Source: a virus (lineage: Duplodnaviria > Heunggongvirae > Uroviricota > Caudoviricetes). Taken from it: DNA of 6,874 bases. This document shows positions 1-6,874 of the stretch, piece by piece. How positions within the stretch are numbered: position 1 is the stretch's first letter; every line of letters begins with the position of its first letter. A model generated the notes under the pieces. It saw only the letters and a list, made by a program, of their open reading frames with translations. It searched no databases and had not been told where the DNA came from. The stretch spans positions 1 to 6,874 of the IMG/VR virus record IMGVR_UViG_2663763280_000005, one strand, 5' to 3'. The position numbers and the translations under genes are program-made.

Positions 1-1
1 A

Positions 2-234
2 GGTGTTCTGGTTAGAACGGGTGTATTTGGTCAGGTTGTAGATGTCGATACCTGCTTCACCCGGATACATCTCGTCTTCGTTAACTTTGATAACGATACG
101 GGAAGCATCCACGTACTGAACGACACCACCACGTTTAGCTACCGCAGTTACACCGGAGTCAACGGCAACAGCACGTTCCATACCAGTACCAACCAGCGGC
201 TTATCAGCGCGCAGAGTCGGAACGGCCTGACGTT
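2..234 (-). CDS. rpoB: DNA-directed RNA polymerase beta subunit, internal fragment (no start or stop in window)
   Basis: Minus-strand translation reads ...[78 protein letters not shown], which matches my recollection of the conserved central RpoB segment. Homology stops abruptly near 234, where the frame runs into unrelated MFS sequence. Confidence 0.85.
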
Positions 235-438
235 GGCGCCGTGCCGCGTTCTTTTTGTGCATACCAGTCGGTGATCGACTTTACTCCCGCAGGCATAAAT
301 GGCGCTTCGCCAATACCCAGACCGATACGCATTAAAATAAAGTGGCTAAAAGAATTAACCATTCCTGTTAATGCCTGCATTAATGACCAGAATATTAAGC
401 CTGCGCCTAAAACAATTCGTGGGCCAAAGCGGTCTAGC
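235..438 (-). CDS. MFS-superfamily transporter, internal fragment (sugar-acid/anion:cation symporter-like)
   Basis: Minus-strand translation [67 protein letters not shown] carries the MFS loop 2-3 signature (GxGxGEAP...ERG) and resembles E. coli DgoT/GudP-type transporters. It is bounded by the n run on one side and the rpoB junction on the other. Confidence 0.55.
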
Positions 439-456
439 NNNACNGNAANGNNGNNN
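439..456. other. Run of ambiguous bases (n interleaved with a few called bases): assembly gap or low-quality join
   Basis: Sequence is nnnacngnaangnngnnn; different genes on opposite strands lie on either side. Confidence 0.95.
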
Positions 457-724
457 AAGCCGTGGCCTGACCGCATTGTTGATGGCGCTGCTGGCCATTT
501 CATTAAGTCGGGTAAAACCGCGGCAAGGGCGATTTTCAACGTTATTGCCACTGACGTTGCTGTTTATTGCCATTTTTTATGGCGGCGACGTCTGCCGTAC
601 GCTGGTGGCTAACGGCGCGATTCCCCTCATTCCTGGTTTGTGGTTAGTACCCGGACTCATGCTAATGGGCCTGCTGATGCTGGTCGCACGCGACTTCTCT
701 TTGCTGCAGAAATTTTCCCGATGA
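457..724 (+). CDS. LptF/LptG (YjgP/YjgQ) family permease, C-terminal fragment (5' end lost in n run)
   Basis: Translation ...LLMALLAISLSRVKPRQGRFSTLLPLTLLFIAIFYGG...LLQKFSR* aligns by eye with the E. coli LptF C-terminus (...VPLSVVNPRQGRVLSMLPAMLLYLLFF...). The stop overlaps the next start as ATGA (721-724), as in lptF-lptG. Confidence 0.5.
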
Positions 725-1460
725 ATGTTTTCAGTCGCTATTTAATCCGTCATCTCTTTCTCGGTTTTGCCGCCGCCGCAGGGCTATTGCTGCCGCTTTT
801 TACCACCTTCAACCTGATTAACGAACTGGATGATGTCAGCCCGGGCGGTTATCGCTGGACTCAGGCGGTGCTGGTGGTGCTAATGACCTTACCGCGCACA
901 CTGGTCGAACTTTCGCCGTTTATCGCGTTATTGGGTGGTATTGTTGGACTGGGGCAGTTATCGAAAAACAGTGAGCTTACCGCCATTCGCAGCACGGGGT
1001 TTTCTATCTTCCGTATTGCACTGGTGGCGCTGGTTGCCGGGATATTGTGGACTGTTTCGTTAGGCGCGATAGATGAGTGGGTGGCGTCGCCATTGCAGCA
1101 ACAGGCGTTGCAAATCAAATCGACCGCCACCGCGTTGGGGGAGGACGATGATATTACCGGCAATATGCTGTGGGCCAGGCGCGGTAATGAATTTGTGACG
1201 GTGAAATCGCTGAATGAACAGGGCCAGCCTGTGGGCGTGGAGATATTTCATTATCGCGACGATCTCTCGCTCGAATCCTACATTTATGCACGCAGTGCCA
1301 CCATTGAAGACGACAAAACGTGGATTCTGCATGGTGTGAATCATAAAAAATGGCTGAATGGCAAAGAAACGCTGGAAATATTAGATAATCTTGCCTGGCA
1401 ATCGACATTCACCAGTATGAATCTTGAAGAACTGTCGATGCCGGGCAATAGCTTTTCCGT
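721..1460 (+). CDS. LptF/LptG (YjgP/YjgQ) family permease, 3'-truncated
   Basis: ATG at 721. Hydrophobic N-terminal region with the [12 protein letters not shown] motif (compare LptG SELVVMQASGF), followed by a soluble beta-rich domain. The expected C-terminal TM bundle is missing: homology ends near 1460 where the phage terL fragment begins. It is divergent from canonical E. coli LptG, so probably a paralog or from another genus. Confidence 0.55.
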
Positions 1461-1573
1461 TCGTGGCGCTGGCAGGCCTGAATCACAAACTGGCAGGCCA
1501 CAATCTTTCCCCGCACGACATCACGGGCATACTGATTGGCAGCATTTACGTTGGGGTAAGATTTCCGGCTCAT
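1461..1573 (-). pseudogene. Phage terminase large subunit, N-terminal fragment only (~37 codons)
   Basis: ATG at 1573..1571 overlaps the terS stop as ATGA. Translation [37 protein letters not shown] resembles the conserved TerL N-terminus (A.QYA.DV..G.I.AC..V..ACQRHL.DL). Similarity is lost after about codon 37 and the frame stops at codon 55. Confidence 0.4.
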
Positions 1574-2064
1574 GATTCGATGATTTTCAGAAACGGGTTA
1601 GTGGCTTTCTTCTGCCCCGCCAGGCCTATCAGACGCTGGCGGCTGCTGGGGTCGAGTCCGAGCATTGCCCCCGTGCTGCTCATCTCGGACTCCTGTTCTT
1701 TCTTGGCGGTCAGCTCCGGGTTTTTGACCCTGCCGCCCATTGCGCCGGTGATGGTGTTGCCCTGGCTGGCAATATTTTTCACGGCACGTCGCCAGAACTC
1801 ATAGGCCACGCACCACCGCTCAAGTACCGCCAGGTCAGTCACGCACAGCAGGCCCTGACCGCAGAGTTCTTTGGTTGTCAGTTGCCACATGATCGTGGCG
1901 AGAGGGAGATCTTCTTCTGCGAACCACTCCGGTGGCTCAACACCTTTGATGGGCGTAAAAACAGGTTCATCTTTATTCAGGGCTCGCTTGCCGGGGTTTC
2001 CGGCCAGCGCCTTGCGCGCCGTTGGCTTGGGGCGACGCCCGGAACGCCCCGCCGTTCCAGCCAT
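1570..2064 (-). CDS. Phage terminase small subunit (P27 family)
   Basis: Translation [36 protein letters not shown]... is typical of the P27-family TerS N-terminus. AGGAG lies 8 nt upstream of the ATG at 2064. The upstream GTG at 2073 lacks an RBS. Confidence 0.85.
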
Positions 2065-2114
2065 ATGCGGCACTCCTGGTTAAATTTCATTTTTCGCGGG
2101 TATAAAAAAACGAT

Positions 2115-2163
2115 GGGGCGGGCAGTCCGGAAGACGTCAGGTCACAGGGATTTGACCCGCCCC
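2115..2163. repeat. GC-rich inverted-repeat element in the HNH-terS intergenic region; candidate cos (cohesive-end) site
   Basis: ggggcggg (2115-2122) pairs with cccgcccc (2156-2163). Inside are the palindrome gacgtc (2133-2138) and the pair ggtca (2140-2144) / tgacc (2153-2157). In HK97-like phages cos lies between the HNH gene and terS. Confidence 0.3.
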
Positions 2164-2189
2164 TCCCCTCAGACAGTTGAGAATTATTA

Positions 2190-2540
2190 TCACTTCAGCC
2201 GTTCACGGGCCGTCTTCGCCTTATGACACGGCCAGCACAGACTCTGCAGATTACAGTCGGCATCAGTGCCGCCATGCGCTTTAGGGATGATGTGGTCAAC
2301 GGCTTTCGCCTCACGCACCACACCGGCACGCAGACATAACTGACACAGGCCTTTGTCACGCTTCAGGACACGCGCGCGGATACTGTCCCACTTCGAACCG
2401 TAGCCGCGCTGATGACGGGATTGTCTAGGTTTGTATTGCTTCCAGCCTTCGCTTTTGTGGCTTTCGCAGTAGCCTGACGGGTCAGTCGTGGTATGGCGGC
2501 AACCGCGAACACGGCAGGCTTTTGGGATTCGTGGCGGCAT
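2190..2540 (-). CDS. Phage HNH endonuclease (packaging-associated)
   Basis: N-terminal Cys-rich zinc ribbon (CRVRGCRH...YCESH) and HNH core (VDHIIPKAHGGTDADCNLQSLCWPCHKAK). Start assigned to the ATG at 2540 (MPPRIPK), because the longer ORF to 2591 would run through the terminator hairpin. Confidence 0.85.
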   Translation of the reverse strand: MPPRIPKACRVRGCRHTTTDPSGYCESHKSEGWKQYKPRQSRHQRGYGSKWDSIRARVLKRDKGLCQLCLRAGVVREAKAVDHIIPKAHGGTDADCNLQSLCWPCHKAKTARERLK

Positions 2541-2575
2541 TGAAGACTCTCTTTGATGTGCATGTGTGGTGCGCA

Positions 2576-2600
2576 TAAAAAAGCCCCGCATGTGCGAGGC
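2576..2600 (-). terminator. Rho-independent terminator ending the AT-rich three-gene operon
   Basis: Minus-strand RNA is GCCUCGC-ACAU-GCGGGGC followed by UUUUUUA: a 7-bp GC-rich stem with one U-G wobble. On the plus strand the same position is a C-A mismatch, so the hairpin is better on the minus strand. It lies 26 nt downstream of the gene C stop. Confidence 0.6.
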
Positions 2601-2625
2601 TAATGATTTGCATAAATTTGTTGTT

Positions 2626-2928
2626 TCAGTCTAGCTTTATAAGTTTTACGGGTTTCTCGCCTGCTTCTACACACCAGTTGTTGTACTCATGTACAGCTCG
2701 CATCAGCTCACCATCATAGTGACCAACCTTCTCTACAAGGGATGTAAGCGATTGGGGGTTGAATTCAACAATTTCTGGTGGGATGAGGTTTACATTCCCT
2801 TTCTGATGAAGGGCATAGACAGCAGTACGTAAATCACCAATAGCTTTCATTCGTTCAGCATGAAGATCTTTGATCTTTTCATTAAGGATTTTGCAGCGAC
2901 CTATTGCTTCATAATTCAGTTCAGACAT
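2626..2928 (-). CDS. Hypothetical protein, 100 aa (moron operon gene C), no recognised family
   Basis: ATG at 2928 preceded by AGGAGG with a 5-nt spacer. AT-rich codon usage matches genes A and B. Translation MSELNYEAIGRCKILNEKIKDLHAERMKAIGDL... is a soluble, helix-prone sequence. Confidence 0.6.
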   Translation of the reverse strand: MSELNYEAIGRCKILNEKIKDLHAERMKAIGDLRTAVYALHQKGNVNLIPPEIVEFNPQSLTSLVEKVGHYDGELMRAVHEYNNWCVEAGEKPVKLIKLD

Positions 2929-2973
2929 TCTGCCCTCCTATTAAAATTCGTTATCTTTAGAGATAACTCTATA

Positions 2974-3360
2974 TTAAGAATGATTTTCTTTATCCTTAAA
3001 ATAATACCCAATTATAAATCCTAATGAAGTACCAAGGGCAGTAATCATTATTGACAATACCTTTTCCAGCTCGAGTGGCTTTAAATATTGAACGTAATCA
3101 TCAACACCTTTGCTCTTTAACTCTAAAGCCCAATTCACAACAGAATTATTATACCAAAGAACAAAAAGACAGCTAAAAATAAGAAGGCAAAAAAAGAACC
3201 AGAGAAACGTAATAGTTAAGGCGCTTCGTGTTTTACCATCAGTATGCTTAGAGTTAACAGCATTTTCCTCTGCTTTTCCAGCTGACTCTTCAATTTTTTT
3301 ATTTTCGATCCTGGCTACTTTTAATCTATCAAGGATGCTTCCAACATCTTCAATCGACAT
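2974..3360 (-). CDS. Hypothetical small membrane protein, 128 aa, two predicted TM helices (moron operon gene B)
   Basis: ATG at 3360 preceded by GGGAGGG 7 nt upstream. It overlaps the gene A stop by 11 nt. Hydrophobic stretches are ALTITFLWFFFCLLIFSCLFVLWY and VLSIMITALGTSLGFIIGYYF. The ORF-track start (TTG at 3378) is less likely. Confidence 0.6.
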   Translation of the reverse strand: MSIEDVGSILDRLKVARIENKKIEESAGKAEENAVNSKHTDGKTRSALTITFLWFFFCLLIFSCLFVLWYNNSVVNWALELKSKGVDDYVQYLKPLELEKVLSIMITALGTSLGFIIGYYFKDKENHS

Positions 3361-3661
3361 TTGAATTCCCTCCCGCAATTTTAGATAAGGAGTTCATAGC
3401 CTCAACATAGTCTGAACTTAAAGACTCATTATATTTTTCAATACTCGAAATTCCATTTTTCACAACTGGGCTAATTTTTATGTAGAGAGCAACCTGTCCT
3501 TTTTCAAACTCAGAGAGATTATCACCAGAGTTTTTGCGGATATCCTCAATTGAGTTCAATAGCTCTGTAATAAGAACCATGTGAGCATCAGCCATCGCAG
3601 CAGATGCTGCTCTGAACTCCGCAATCTTTTCAATAGCTTGTTTGATTTTTATGTTTGACAT
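3350..3661 (-). CDS. Hypothetical protein, 103 aa (moron operon gene A), no recognised family
   Basis: ATG at 3661 preceded by GGAGA 6 nt upstream. Translation MSNIKIKQAIEKIAEFRAASAAMADAHMVLITELLNSIEDIRKNSG... is soluble and helix-prone. It is the first gene downstream of an AT-rich non-coding leader. Confidence 0.6.
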   Translation of the reverse strand: MSNIKIKQAIEKIAEFRAASAAMADAHMVLITELLNSIEDIRKNSGDNLSEFEKGQVALYIKISPVVKNGISSIEKYNESLSSDYVEAMNSLSKIAGGNSNVD

Positions 3662-3922
3662 ATTATCTCCATCATATAATGTTCATATTCTCTCACTTAT
3701 CATCAAAAATGACAAGCTAAGGGAACCACTTAATTTATATGTGGAAAGAATGATTAAATTTTTCAATCTTAATATATACATCACATCAATTATTAAAAGT
3801 AACAAAACACTTGTCTACTTATAACTTTATTGTTTTTCATATTTAGGTAAGCATGAGCAATAATTATATCGTATTCTGTGTGGTATATTATATTCATCTA
3901 CTAACAAGAAAAATATACCACT
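3662..3922 (-). promoter_or_regulatory. AT-rich non-coding leader; probable promoter/operator region for the three-gene operon
   Basis: About 260 nt with no convincing ORF and several TATA-like hexamers on the minus strand. Contains a 9-bp perfect inverted repeat, gtggtatat (3880-3888) / atataccac (3913-3921). I could not pin down a single -35/-10 pair. Confidence 0.3.
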
Positions 3923-4193
3923 TCAAATTGTACGTTTGTATTTCTTATGCATACCGCGCTCAACAGAGTCACCAGGAATATGGTTAATAGTCTGCTGTAT
4001 ATTTCTGGCCTCTTCCGTTGCCTCTACACGGTGTCCTGCTGCTGAGTGCTTAGCCGCTGCGTTAACTTCAGTGTATAACAGAGCAGTTTTAACCTCTTCT
4101 TTTACTAGTGCCACGGATACGCCCTAGGCCAACAACTCCAGCGATAACAGTGATAACCAAAGCAACCAGTCCAATAAATCTTTCGATACTCAT
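3923..4193 (-). pseudogene. Possible frameshifted gene for a small membrane-anchored protein (two overlapping frames)
   Basis: ATG at 4193 gives MSIERFIGLVALVITVIAGVVGLGRIRGTSKRRG* (stop 4091..4089). A +1 frame opens 4 codons before the track's GTG at 4114 and gives ...ALVKEEVKTALLYTEVNAAAKHSAAGHRVEATEEARNIQQTINHIPGDSVERGMHKKYKRTI* (to 3923). One indel near 4110-4125 would fuse them into a protein of about 90 aa with an N-terminal TM anchor. No clear SD precedes the ATG at 4193. Confidence 0.3.
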
Positions 4194-4270
4194 TGCATCA
4201 GAACAGATTTTGCCAAATTAACAGAACGGGCGTGGTATAACACTTCGAAAACACGATCAATCTGCCTCTT

Positions 4271-4708
4271 TTAATTCATGCATTGAGTTCTGATGTATTC
4301 CTGTAGGTAATTAACCTGTGCGGTTATCCTGTCGATTCCACTTCGGAGACGGTAATAATTGAATTCAGCATCTGCTGTAAGTCCTGGGCTTTCTCCATCG
4401 CCCATGCCGCTGGCTCTGGTCGTTGATTTTGCACAGGTGGCGGCGACTTGCAGGCGCTTACGCCCAGAAGAAACATCAGCACGGAGACTTTCGATAGTCG
4501 CGTTAGCATCAGCAAGCTCCTTTGTGTATCTGGCGTCGAGTTCTGCTACATCACGTTGACGCTTCTGCATATCAGCGATGATGGATGTGGCTTTATCGCG
4601 CTGTTCTTTGTAGGTAATGGCGTTATCACGGTAATGATTAACAGCCCATGACAGGCAGACGATGATGCAGATAACAAGAGCGGAGATAATCGCGGTGACT
4701 CTGCTCAT
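4271..4708 (-). CDS. Rz: Spanin inner-membrane subunit (i-spanin) Rz
   Basis: N-terminus [34 protein letters not shown] matches lambda Rz as I recall it. ATG overlaps the R stop as ATGA (4705-4708). The C-terminal half diverges from lambda Rz. Confidence 0.9.
4324..4515 (-). CDS. Rz1: Spanin outer-membrane lipoprotein (o-spanin) Rz1, embedded in the +1 frame of Rz
   Basis: Translation [22 protein letters not shown]|[13 protein letters not shown]... has a signal peptide, a lipobox (LLGVSAC) and a proline-rich mature region, and lies wholly inside Rz in a different frame, as with lambda Rz1. Confidence 0.7.
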
Positions 4709-5181
4709 GCCTCAATCTCTCTTACCGTTCCGCCAGCTTCTTTGAATTTTGCAATCAGGCTGTCAGCCTTATGCTCGAACTGACCGTAACCAGCCCCCGG
4801 CAGTGAAGCCCAGATATTGCTGCAACGGTCGATAGCCTGACGAATATCGCCGCGATCAATCATTGGTAAAGCGCCACGCTCTTTAATCTGCTGCAGCGCA
4901 ACAGCATCCTGGCTTTTCGGAGAGAAGTCTTTCAGGCCAAGCTGCTTACGGTAGGCATCCCACCAACGGGAAAGAAGCTGGTAGCGTCCGGCGGCTGTTG
5001 ATTTGAGTTTGGGGTTTAGCGTGACAAGTTTGCGAGGGTGATCGGAGTAATCAGTGAAGAGTTCACCACCGACAATAACGTCATAACCGTGGTTACGTGT
5101 CGGTTGTCGTCCGTTATCCGTTCCTTCTGACCAAGCCACCATATCAAGGAAAGCTTTACGCTGGGAATTTAGTACCTGCAT
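4705..5181 (-). CDS. R: Endolysin, lambda R-type lytic transglycosylase
   Basis: The 158-aa product [61 protein letters not shown]... is near-identical to lambda R ([42 protein letters not shown]...). AAGGAG lies 6 nt upstream of the ATG at 5181. Confidence 0.95.
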
Positions 5182-5184
5182 AAA

Positions 5185-5511
5185 TTACTCCTTAGAGCCA
5201 CCAAATTTGTTACCGATTACTCGCATTGCAGCCCCACGAATAGCATCGACACCGATCAGCCCCACCCCACCACCAATGGCAACAGAAAGTGATTTAGGCC
5301 ATCCGACATACTCAAGAGCGGATGCAAAGGTCAGCGTCAGAGCGCCACATAGCAAAATCTCAAGCGTTTTTCGCTTCCAGCCACCACCACCGCCAAAATA
5401 GGCGATGCGCAAACCAGCCATAACGATCGACATAATCACTGCGCCCAGCGGTGTGTCTCCACGCCACCAGCTCTGGACCAACTCCAACCAGGTATTTGGG
5501 TTATGAGGCAT
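5185..5511 (-). CDS. Holin (three-TM class I, lambda S-like architecture)
   Basis: 108 aa directly upstream of the endolysin, with a 3-nt gap. Three hydrophobic segments (PLGAVIMSIVMAGLRIAYF, LEILLCGALTLTFASALEYVG, LSVAIGGGVGLIGVDAI) and a charged C-terminal tail. There is no dual-start motif: the in-frame upstream codons are Q, L, stop. Confidence 0.75.
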   Translation of the reverse strand: MPHNPNTWLELVQSWWRGDTPLGAVIMSIVMAGLRIAYFGGGGGWKRKTLEILLCGALTLTFASALEYVGWPKSLSVAIGGGVGLIGVDAIRGAAMRVIGNKFGGSKE

Positions 5512-5650
5512 TTGTAGTTATCTCTCACCTCGCTGATACAGCAGGTGCAAATTGAGGGAACATCATGTACCGCAAATCAGAAGCGGAAACGTCAAAGAAG
5601 CCGAACCAATGGATAACTGCGGAATAGGCCAGAACCAACGAATCCCCAGC

Positions 5651-5684
5651 CCCAGAAACGACAAAACCCGCTCGACGCGGGTTT
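5651..5684 (-). terminator. Intrinsic terminator-like hairpin upstream of the holin (tR'-like late terminator candidate)
   Basis: Perfect 8-bp stem aaacccgc (5664-5671) / gcgggttt (5677-5684) with loop tcgac. On the minus-strand RNA it is followed by UUUUGUCGUUUCU (5663..5651). On the plus strand the T tract is shorter (tttaag). Confidence 0.45.
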
Positions 5685-5800
5685 AAGCTGTGTGGCGAAG
5701 TAACCACTCTTAACAGATTATGATAGTTTTTGCGTACGCGTTAGTAATTTATTATGCTCTTTACAATTGTTAGCTTAACCGCATGGAATTGACCAAAAAA

Positions 5801-6720
5801 ATGAGCAAAGTAAGCATACGCCACGTAATCGTTCATGAGCTCTTAAAAGAATCTAATAAAGACTTCGATCACTCCAAACCATACAATCTTCGTGATACAG
5901 AACTAGATAAAACAAATGATATAGTAAAAAAATTAGTAGACGGTGTTATTGATTTGTATGGTTCAAAAGGGAACTCAGCGCATTATGGTGTTTTTATTAA
6001 AAATAAAACAAAGCAAGGCCCTATACCAGAACTATTTCATAAATACTCTTTAGTTCAACAATCTGTTTCAAGTGATTTCATTGAATTATCGAAGGAAGTT
6101 ATGAAACAAATGTATAAATCTGCTCAAGAGCAGATTTGGGCTTCTGGAGGATATGTTGTTTTTACTGATTATATTTTATCTGGTTTCCGTTATCTATTGG
6201 TTACAATGATCAAAAAAACTAATGGCGTAACTATTAGTGAAAATTTAGAGCCAGAGGAAATGATTCACTTAGAACTTGGTAATATTAACCAAGCAGCAAA
6301 AATAAATTTCAGATATTATGAAGAATACCAAAAAGCAGATGACTTAAAAAAAACAGACTTAAGTTATCTAAGCTTTATAAGCAAAACTACGGGACAGTCA
6401 GCGGCAGCATATTTTATAGCAGCATTAGGATGTGACAAGGGGATTGCTTCAGCAGGTGCAACCCGTAAGTTACCAGATGAAATAAGGCGTTTCTTTAAGA
6501 AAGAACCTCTTTTAAAAAATCAAGCAGAGTCATTTAGAAATGATGTTATCAAATACTTAGAAAAGCAATTTGACAACGAGCACTCTGCAAGGCTTTCTGA
6601 TATCGAATCGCTTGCTTCAGGCCATATGTCCGATTTAAAAGAGGAAGAAAAAACAGAACTTGTTGATAAATTAATGAAACACCTCAATAGTGAGGAAGTC
6701 AGAATCCCATCAGAGTTCGT
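5801..6720 (+). CDS. NA37/NdpA (YejK) family nucleoid-associated protein, divergent low-GC paralog; 3' end uncertain
   Basis: From the ATG at 5801 the translation MSKVSIRHVIVHELLKE...ASGGYVVFTDYILSGFRYLLVTMIKK...YLSFISKTTGQSAAAYFIAALG aligns by eye with E. coli YejK/NdpA (MSLDINQIALHQLIKRDE...[25 protein letters not shown]...[22 protein letters not shown]). The true C-terminus is obscured, because the open frame runs through n 6723 into unrelated sequence. Confidence 0.6.
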
Positions 6721-6723
6721 AAN

Positions 6724-6873
6724 AGTAAATTGCCCTGCGACGGGTCAAAAGCATTCAGCCCCCAAATGCGTAAGTCTGGCCTGTTCCGCACTCAACTACG
6801 GGCGATTTTGCGCGCTGCCAGTTTTGGCAACGCCCAGTTGATGATCCCGATGGTTCACAGCCTCGATCAGATC
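6724..6873 (+). CDS. PEP-utilising enzyme (PTS enzyme I family) internal fragment
   Basis: Translation in the frame of the codon at 6781 gives ...[32 protein letters not shown], which resembles PtsI ...[30 protein letters not shown]. It is a family member, not PtsI itself. It runs off the window end. Confidence 0.5.
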
Positions 6874-6874
6874 T

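Follow-up and report, generated by a model that had tools for sequence, protein, structure and literature searches.

What is a gene for a chromosomal type of nucleoid-associated protein doing beside the lysis genes of a lambdoid phage? The question is raised by positions 1 to 6,874 of IMG/VR virus record IMGVR_UViG_2663763280_000005 (Caudoviricetes), the stretch of DNA analysed here and referred to throughout as the window, in which an AT-rich block next to the holin gene encodes, on the opposite strand, a protein of the NA37 (YejK/NdpA) family. A preliminary description made from the letters alone had placed this gene where the late-control elements Q and pR′ should be, and had offered nucleoid remodelling, silencing or exclusion of incoming DNA as possible roles and an artificial join as the alternative. 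We conclude, with a probability of about 0.72, that window positions 5801–6722 hold a truncated gene for the sensor of an anti-phage system that consists of two genes and is carried by prophages; this system would be a sister lineage of DS-1 with the architecture of type II PANGU. The sensing of phage-inflicted genome damage via a nucleoid protein was described only in 2026, and a sister lineage of such systems would be common in Enterobacterales prophages, hidden behind uninformative annotation.

The NA37 gene of the window is a fragment of a natural prophage gene

The features on which this part of the analysis bears are the following.

5801–6722, + strand: gene for a YejK-like NA37 nucleoid-associated protein (NAP), codons 1–307 of 382 (the 5′ 80%); putative sensor, PagA/DS-1A-like
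6723: single N at the chimeric join that truncates the NA37 gene; every native match ends at 6722
6724–6874: foreign DNA fused to the NA37 gene (first 52 bases, 6724–6775; ptsP, 6776–6874)

The gene lies in an open reading frame (ORF) of 352 residues at 5783–6841 on the + strand, of which the last 38 residues are read-through into foreign DNA. Profile searches upheld the proposed NA37/NdpA homology: the first 314 residues of the ORF match Pfam NA37 (PF04245) with an E value of 3.5e-39 and 135.5 bits, against a cut-off of 24.6, over positions 1–275 of the 325 in the profile, and the full-length native NAP matches over positions 1–321 of 325 (E 2.1e-50, 172.4 bits). The probable start codon is the ATG at 5801, since RefSeq starts there and related loci keep an A-rich tract followed by an ATG at this place, but not the ATG at 5783. 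Judged from its sequence, the NAP is a divergent paralogue of YejK, not the housekeeping gene, which agrees with the divergence that had been suspected: it is ~24% identical to Escherichia coli YejK (9BE2) and scores 134.9 bits against the NCBIfam YejK equivalog NF001557, short of the cut-off of 341. E. coli YejK 9BE2 is its only significant solved relative (sequence search, E 3.9e-15), and an AlphaFold 2 (AF2) model of the NAP, with a predicted local distance difference test score (pLDDT) of 81, aligns with 9BE2 from end to end in Foldseek (E 3.7e-15, probability 1.00, 369 columns). Thus, the NAP has the domain and fold of chromosomal YejK/NdpA (PF04245) over its full length but, unlike it, is prophage-borne, has 33% GC and is operon-linked to a membrane protein gene. 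When compared with KwaB of Kiwa, the model of the NAP gave no significant match (E above 2).

As had been noted from the letters, the NAP is encoded by an AT-rich block opposite the lysis genes, with its ORF on the + strand: GC content drops at ~5750 from 0.49 (4000–5750) to 0.335 (5751–6722). Such a sharp drop, in a window that is chimeric elsewhere (439–456, ~1464 and 6723), could speak for an assembly or cloning artefact in which foreign low-GC DNA, for example the yejK of another organism, was joined at ~5700. We give this explanation practically no credence. Because positions 5500–6722 are identical (1223/1223) to the complete chromosome of E. coli GPEC1405, holin-to-NA37 junction included, the shift in composition at this junction is natural, and the artificial join sits at 6723, not at ~5700. 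Nor is the gene a core yejK of a low-GC organism spliced into phage DNA, given that it is native to prophages of 30 complete E. coli genomes, three of which have the fragment 5801–6722 without a mismatch (922/922) and none of which falls below 99.3% identity. The same layout, moreover, recurs in other genera and in a Klebsiella phage that has been sequenced.

Beyond 6722 the native sequence continues as ATCAATAAAAACTCC..., whereas the window, past the N, continues as NAGTAAATTGCCC...; the native protein reads ...EFVINKNSLDK... and then through the remaining 75 codons, in place of which the window has unrelated sequence. Since all 30 native carriers are uncut at this point, the NAP gene of the window is a 307-codon fragment made by the chimeric join, which takes away the last 75 codons and the whole of the partner gene described below. 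With its NAP truncated and its partner gene gone, the anti-phage system cannot work in the window; in practical terms, what the window offers is a gene fragment in a chimeric record.

The native gene is half of a conserved two-gene cassette

In E. coli GPEC1405 and elppa6, the native order is the gene for the 382-aa NA37 protein followed, with a 4-bp overlap, by a gene for a 408-aa 'hypothetical protein' (WP_016159279.1), here called the partner, whose 3′ end overlaps convergently the 3′ end of the antiterminator gene Q; the intact cassette of GPEC1405 spans 2100305–2102758 of NZ_CM142774.1. The NAP–partner pair is divergent from the holin and lysis genes (+ strand in the frame of the window), and the cassette has 31–34% GC within a prophage of 50% GC. 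The native neighbourhood of the best matches, which the preliminary description had wished to see inspected, is thus a prophage, between Q and holin. Each of the 30 complete E. coli genomes with the allele (at least 99.3% identity) has one chromosomal copy, and the whole cassette is present in 30/30; UPEC85 is the strain name of one carrier of the exact allele. In another carrier, E. coli 268.2 (NZ_CP059947.1, 1161567–1164797), an IS1 element is inserted within the cassette region, and this strain may represent a natural knockout of the cassette.

The same layout was found in Klebsiella phage P7641, where NAP and partner are 62% and 48% identical to those of the cassette at the protein level, in prophages of Edwardsiella and Pectobacterium whose structural modules differ, in Salmonella, where the NAP is recorded in 846 blocks of the assembly collection, and in a second E. 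coli lineage; strain TUM1880 has a variant of the window's pair with 68% and 53% identity. Distant homologues of the partner lie directly downstream of an NA37 gene in two metagenome contigs and at one non-prophage locus. Because NAP and partner are adjacent at every locus examined (the E. coli alleles, P7641, Edwardsiella, Pectobacterium, Salmonella, the two metagenome contigs and the one non-prophage locus), and hence also outside prophages, we regard the pairing as a conserved unit. A profile of the partner retrieved 1,009 representatives at 50% identity (E ≤1e-3), and most of those listed have 400–430 aa. The databases name the NAP only 'nucleoid-associated protein' and the partner 'hypothetical protein'. 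In the common Salmonella enterica version (L012, 4321–4884), a DUF6037 gene stands ahead of the NA37 gene on the same strand, and the Salmonella cargo may be a three-gene unit.

The partner family is without a Pfam model, searches against Pfam giving only noise, and a sequence search of the PDB gave no match to the partner. In its AF2 model (pLDDT 85), the N-terminal domain is of the alpha/beta type, and there are long helices as well as C-terminal hydrophobic helices at ~287–331 and ~381–405. Consistent with a membrane location of the C-terminal part, Kyte–Doolittle 19-aa windows exceed 1.6 at 287, 303–313 and 381–387 and fall in the model helices 289–302, 306–351, 358–388 and 390–403. Residues 1–285 are mildly acidic, with an isoelectric point of 5.46 and a net charge of −7.9. 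Fold searches with the partner returned generic helical matches and a weak CorA-like hint.

Both proteins are homologous to those of DS-1 and match the architecture of type II PANGU

DS-1 corresponds to DefensePredictor construct D390 (WP_000355468.1 and WP_000150292.1), which was validated and protects E. coli from phage (PMC13092281). The E. coli table of the same study lists the partner of our cassette, WP_016159279.1, as a 'Predicted novel defense gene' with a log-odds of 13.0 (PMC13092281). DS-1 likewise consists of a NAP followed by a partner of ~400 aa, and both proteins are detectably homologous to those of the cassette: the NAP scores 100.1 bits (E 1.3e-28) against the NCBIfam family DS1_1 (NF053868) and the partner 100.0 bits (E 1.5e-28) against DS1_2 (NF053869), neither reaching the equivalog cut-offs of 330 and 315 respectively. 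As a positive control, the DS-1 pair of E. coli 2015C-3163 (locus L018) exceeded both cut-offs, with 451.4 bits for DS-1A and 375.2 bits for DS-1B. In BLASTP, identity to the DS-1 proteins was 24% for the NAP (E 6e-11) and 22% for the partner (E 8e-11), and hhalign aligned the partner profile with DS-1B at a probability of 96.6%; the two partners can be aligned only over roughly residues 88–318. Moreover, DS-1 takes the same AT-rich, opposite-strand position between Q and holin, in the same P27-terminase type of prophage backbone (native loci L001 and L002 compared with L018). The system is of a known kind (DS-1 and PANGU, both of 2026), and its lineage falls below the DS-1 family thresholds. 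On this homology to a validated anti-phage system, the earlier guess at a role in excluding incoming DNA would point the right way.

Type II PANGU (Pag2A and Pag2B) consists of a NAP and a transmembrane effector whose acidic, DNA-mimicking (DMK) N-terminal domain binds the NAP; the system needs both of its genes and acts by abortive infection (bioRxiv 10.64898/2026.04.06.716658). The cassette is alike in its YejK-like NAP, its tight bicistronic operon, the C-terminal membrane region of the partner and its mildly acidic N-terminal part, a likeness of architecture. PANGU operons were defined by adjacent genes less than 40 bp apart, and the native cassette has a 4-bp overlap; an effector with a C-terminal transmembrane domain is a further trait of type II that the partner is predicted to have, from hydropathy and from the model. 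Both type II PANGU and the cassette occur in E. coli. Prophages are mentioned 0 times in the PANGU preprint (bioRxiv 10.64898/2026.04.06.716658), whereas the cassette sits in a fixed prophage slot.

The NAP could also be read as a chromatin or regulatory protein of mobile elements that acts on nucleoid shape or on host or prophage transcription, for instance in lysogeny maintenance or silencing, with a partner that tethers or modulates DNA and with defence not as the main role. Stand-alone NA37 genes are indeed known from Pseudomonas plasmids, including pCAR1 (NC_004444), and from phages F116, H66 and LKA5 (23–32% identity), and PHROGs has an entry of its own for the prophage NAP family under 'DNA, RNA and nucleotide metabolism', in keeping with the bare database name of the NAP. 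These cases also bear on the preliminary description, which was correct in seeing a mobile-element context, this being a lambdoid prophage, but overstated in calling it unusual. We nevertheless consider the chromatin or regulatory role unlikely: the membrane partner is strictly kept beside the NAP at all loci checked, also outside prophages, both proteins are homologous to the validated defence system that occupies the same slot, the slot is alternatively filled by a defence-type KAP NTPase (see below), and no relative of the NAP with more than 33% identity was found on plasmids. A plasmid origin of the NAP gene was rejected, plasmid homologues being at most 32% identical.

Several points weigh against the defence assignment. 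Going by the scores of ~100 bits, against cut-offs of 330 and 315, NAP and partner are not DS-1 proper, and the NAP is without the N-terminal zinc-ribbon-like CxxC...CxxC segment found in DS-1A. The mild net negative charge only weakly suggests a 'DNA-mimic' character for the N-terminal part of the partner. The PADLOC 2023 models matched neither the NAP nor the partner, a consensus promoter scan of 5450–5900 gave no match, and we found no experiments on this NAP–partner subfamily in the literature. The PANGU mechanism, finally, is described in a preprint, and the work behind it dealt chiefly with type I (bioRxiv 10.64898/2026.04.06.716658).

A proposed abortive-infection mechanism

Because the cassette fits the type II PANGU architecture, we adopt a mechanism of the PANGU type as the most likely one by analogy. 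Being transcribed against the late genes, between Q and the promoter-like/terminator element, the cassette should be expressible from a resident prophage. The NAP would coat the host chromosome, as its homology and the architecture of the pair suggest; an incoming lytic phage that degrades host DNA would release it, and the released NAP would bind the cytoplasmic domain of the membrane partner. The partner would then damage the membrane, and the infected cell would abort the infection. In PANGU, the NAP leaves the nucleoid upon T4 infection (bioRxiv 10.64898/2026.04.06.716658).

The co-encoding of a membrane protein with a DNA-binding protein, in the lysogenic direction and at a classic 'moron' position, would also suit a superinfection-exclusion module or a toxin–antitoxin-like addiction module, in which the membrane protein blocks DNA entry or is a toxin restrained by the NAP, so that the prophage is stabilised. 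This seems to us improbable, even more so than a chromatin role, inasmuch as in the PANGU systems tested neither gene is toxic alone and the NAP activates the effector instead of neutralising it (bioRxiv 10.64898/2026.04.06.716658), and the pair showed no similarity to known exclusion or toxin–antitoxin families in Pfam, PADLOC or NCBIfam.

The cassette occupies an exchangeable slot beside the late-gene switch

The region between the NAP gene and the holin gene contains three features.

5750–5800, + strand: cassette-specific upstream region, presumed cassette promoter
5685–5757, − strand: conserved non-coding element adjoining the cargo, proposed Q-dependent late promoter with Q-loading/pause region (pR′)
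5654–5684, − strand: tR′-like intrinsic terminator, with an 8-bp stem including 5 G–C pairs and then a T-rich tail, TGTCGTTTCT (scan match 5684..5664)

The tR′-like hairpin that had been noticed in the sequence was recovered by the scan at 5684..5664 on the late-gene strand, where it is followed by TTTTGTCGTTTCT. It is present in both the minimum free energy and the centroid folds and is kept in the E. coli loci whichever of the three cargo types described below they carry. The free energy of the 71 nt around the hairpin was not unusual relative to shuffled sequence (z −0.35), so that the terminator call rests on form and conservation. Read on the late strand, 5685..5757 comprises TAACGCGTACGCAAAA, ~12 nt and TTAAGAGTGGTTAC..CACAGCTTAA. 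In an alignment of loci L001, L003, L004, L005, L007, L018 and L019, which cover E. coli (with three different cargos), Klebsiella phage P7641, Pectobacterium and Edwardsiella, the ~95 nt of non-coding DNA at 5660–5757 have 46 columns that are invariant across genera and cargo types. This segment is probably where a prophage group with Q of the QuuD/Q21 family (PF06530) has its Q-dependent late promoter, its loading site and its terminator, the pR′ assignment being made because of its position and the canonical Q cassette layout of Q, pR′, sigma-dependent pause element, terminator and late genes. Gene Q itself lies outside the window; in the native loci a PF06530-type Q is found 2.4 kb away, beyond the cargo. 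The NA37 gene therefore does not replace Q and pR′, as had been thought: natively Q lies just beyond the cassette, and the promoter-like/terminator element is kept at ~5660–5757.

From this arrangement, the cargo appears to be inserted between gene Q and pR′. By comparing prophages that have the same lysis module but different cargo, we place the left edge of the cargo at window positions 5745–5750 and its right edge within the 3′ end of Q. A TATTAT hexamer at 5750–5755, within the presumed promoter region of the cassette, is matched by TAnnAT-like hexamers in most of the seven loci of the alignment. In E. coli 2015C-3163 (L018, 8003–10395), the DS-1 pair is in the same slot, in a prophage 95.8% identical to the phage segment of the window; there, the neighbouring DUF968 gene is broken by an IS3 insertion. 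In strain PapRG-04-4 (L003, 10356–11687), the slot holds a KAP NTPase that matches the PADLOC candidate PDC-S20 (E 9e-177). This KAP NTPase also matches PifA and QatA, more weakly, and PapRG-04-4 carries the NA37 cassette too, in another prophage. Since DS-1, the 68%/53% variant pair or a KAP NTPase occupy it in other strains, we consider the slot to be an exchangeable site for defence cargo. Such allele exchange at one fixed slot by the late-gene switch offers a handle for finding more systems and for comparing trigger specificities.

Lambdoid phages are known to carry 'moron' genes as cargo in the interval from Q to the lysis genes, such as stx in Stx phages and the lc and nmpC porin genes in PA-2 and DLP12. 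The cargo of the window is likewise accessory and of atypical composition, and it adjoins the Q-dependent late control region; unlike those genes, it lies on the opposite strand and, by our assignment of the promoter, upstream of pR′, so that Q-dependent late transcription would not be expected to cross it.

Taken jointly, these observations allow a wider picture that we put forward tentatively and think rather doubtful as a whole: the cassette would be a sister lineage of DS-1/type II PANGU with a trigger range of its own, and the gap between Q and pR′ a dedicated immune slot of these Enterobacterales prophages with sharp edges (5745–5750 and the 3′ end of Q), at which whole units, be they divergent NAP–effector alleles, DS-1 or KAP NTPases, replace one another. 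In the same picture, the effector may be a CorA-like gated membrane channel, opened by the released nucleoid protein.

Composition of the window and its prophage segment

The window as a whole is a mosaic of unrelated E. coli pieces and a lambdoid prophage segment, made up, ahead of the join at 6723, as follows.

Within 1–1464, ahead of 439–456: fragment resembling a major facilitator superfamily transporter
439–456: cluster of Ns and bases
457–1464: lptF/lptG of E. coli
1464–6722: lambdoid prophage DNA

The pieces were found together in 0 of 5,426 complete E. coli genomes. The join between lptG and phage DNA at ~1464 is flanked by two copies of CTGGCAGGCC. In Megablast, positions 53–151 of the piece at 6724–6874 matched the ptsP of many genomes at 100% identity; the piece as a whole was covered by none of them. 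Simple Sau3AI/BglII ligation was rejected as the source of the chimera, the joins being without GATC sites. Scans for Rfam families (E up to 0.1) and for tRNAs across the window revealed nothing relevant.

On the − strand, the phage segment encodes a P27-type small terminase, an HNH endonuclease, three small low-GC ORFs and a lysis module of Rz, endolysin and lambda-family holin.

5185–5511, − strand: lambda-family holin, the first of the late lysis genes, transcribed divergently from the NA37 gene (Pfam Phage_holin_3_1, E 5.7e-25; RefSeq 'phage holin, lambda family')
4705–5181, − strand: endolysin (RefSeq 'glycoside hydrolase family 24')
4271–4708, − strand: Rz spanin (Pfam Phage_lysis, E 2.8e-34)
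4324–4515: Rz1-like ORF embedded in Rz, with a lipobox-like LLGVSAC

Downstream of Rz, a 63-aa ORF at 3923–4114 (− strand) partially matches Rz-like spanins (phrog_1026, E 4.6e-10) and may be left over from a different lysis module. At 2600–3900, between the HNH endonuclease and the Rz spanin, there is a second block of low GC (0.34), which contains the three small − strand ORFs, at 2626–2928, 2974–3378 and 3350–3661, which match phrog_4827, phrog_20796 and phrog_21707, the one matching phrog_20796 also having a weak PADLOC 2TM_IV match (E 0.003). This position varies among related prophages, that of TUM1880 having an S1 peptidase there and others having different small genes, and the block may be a second cargo slot.

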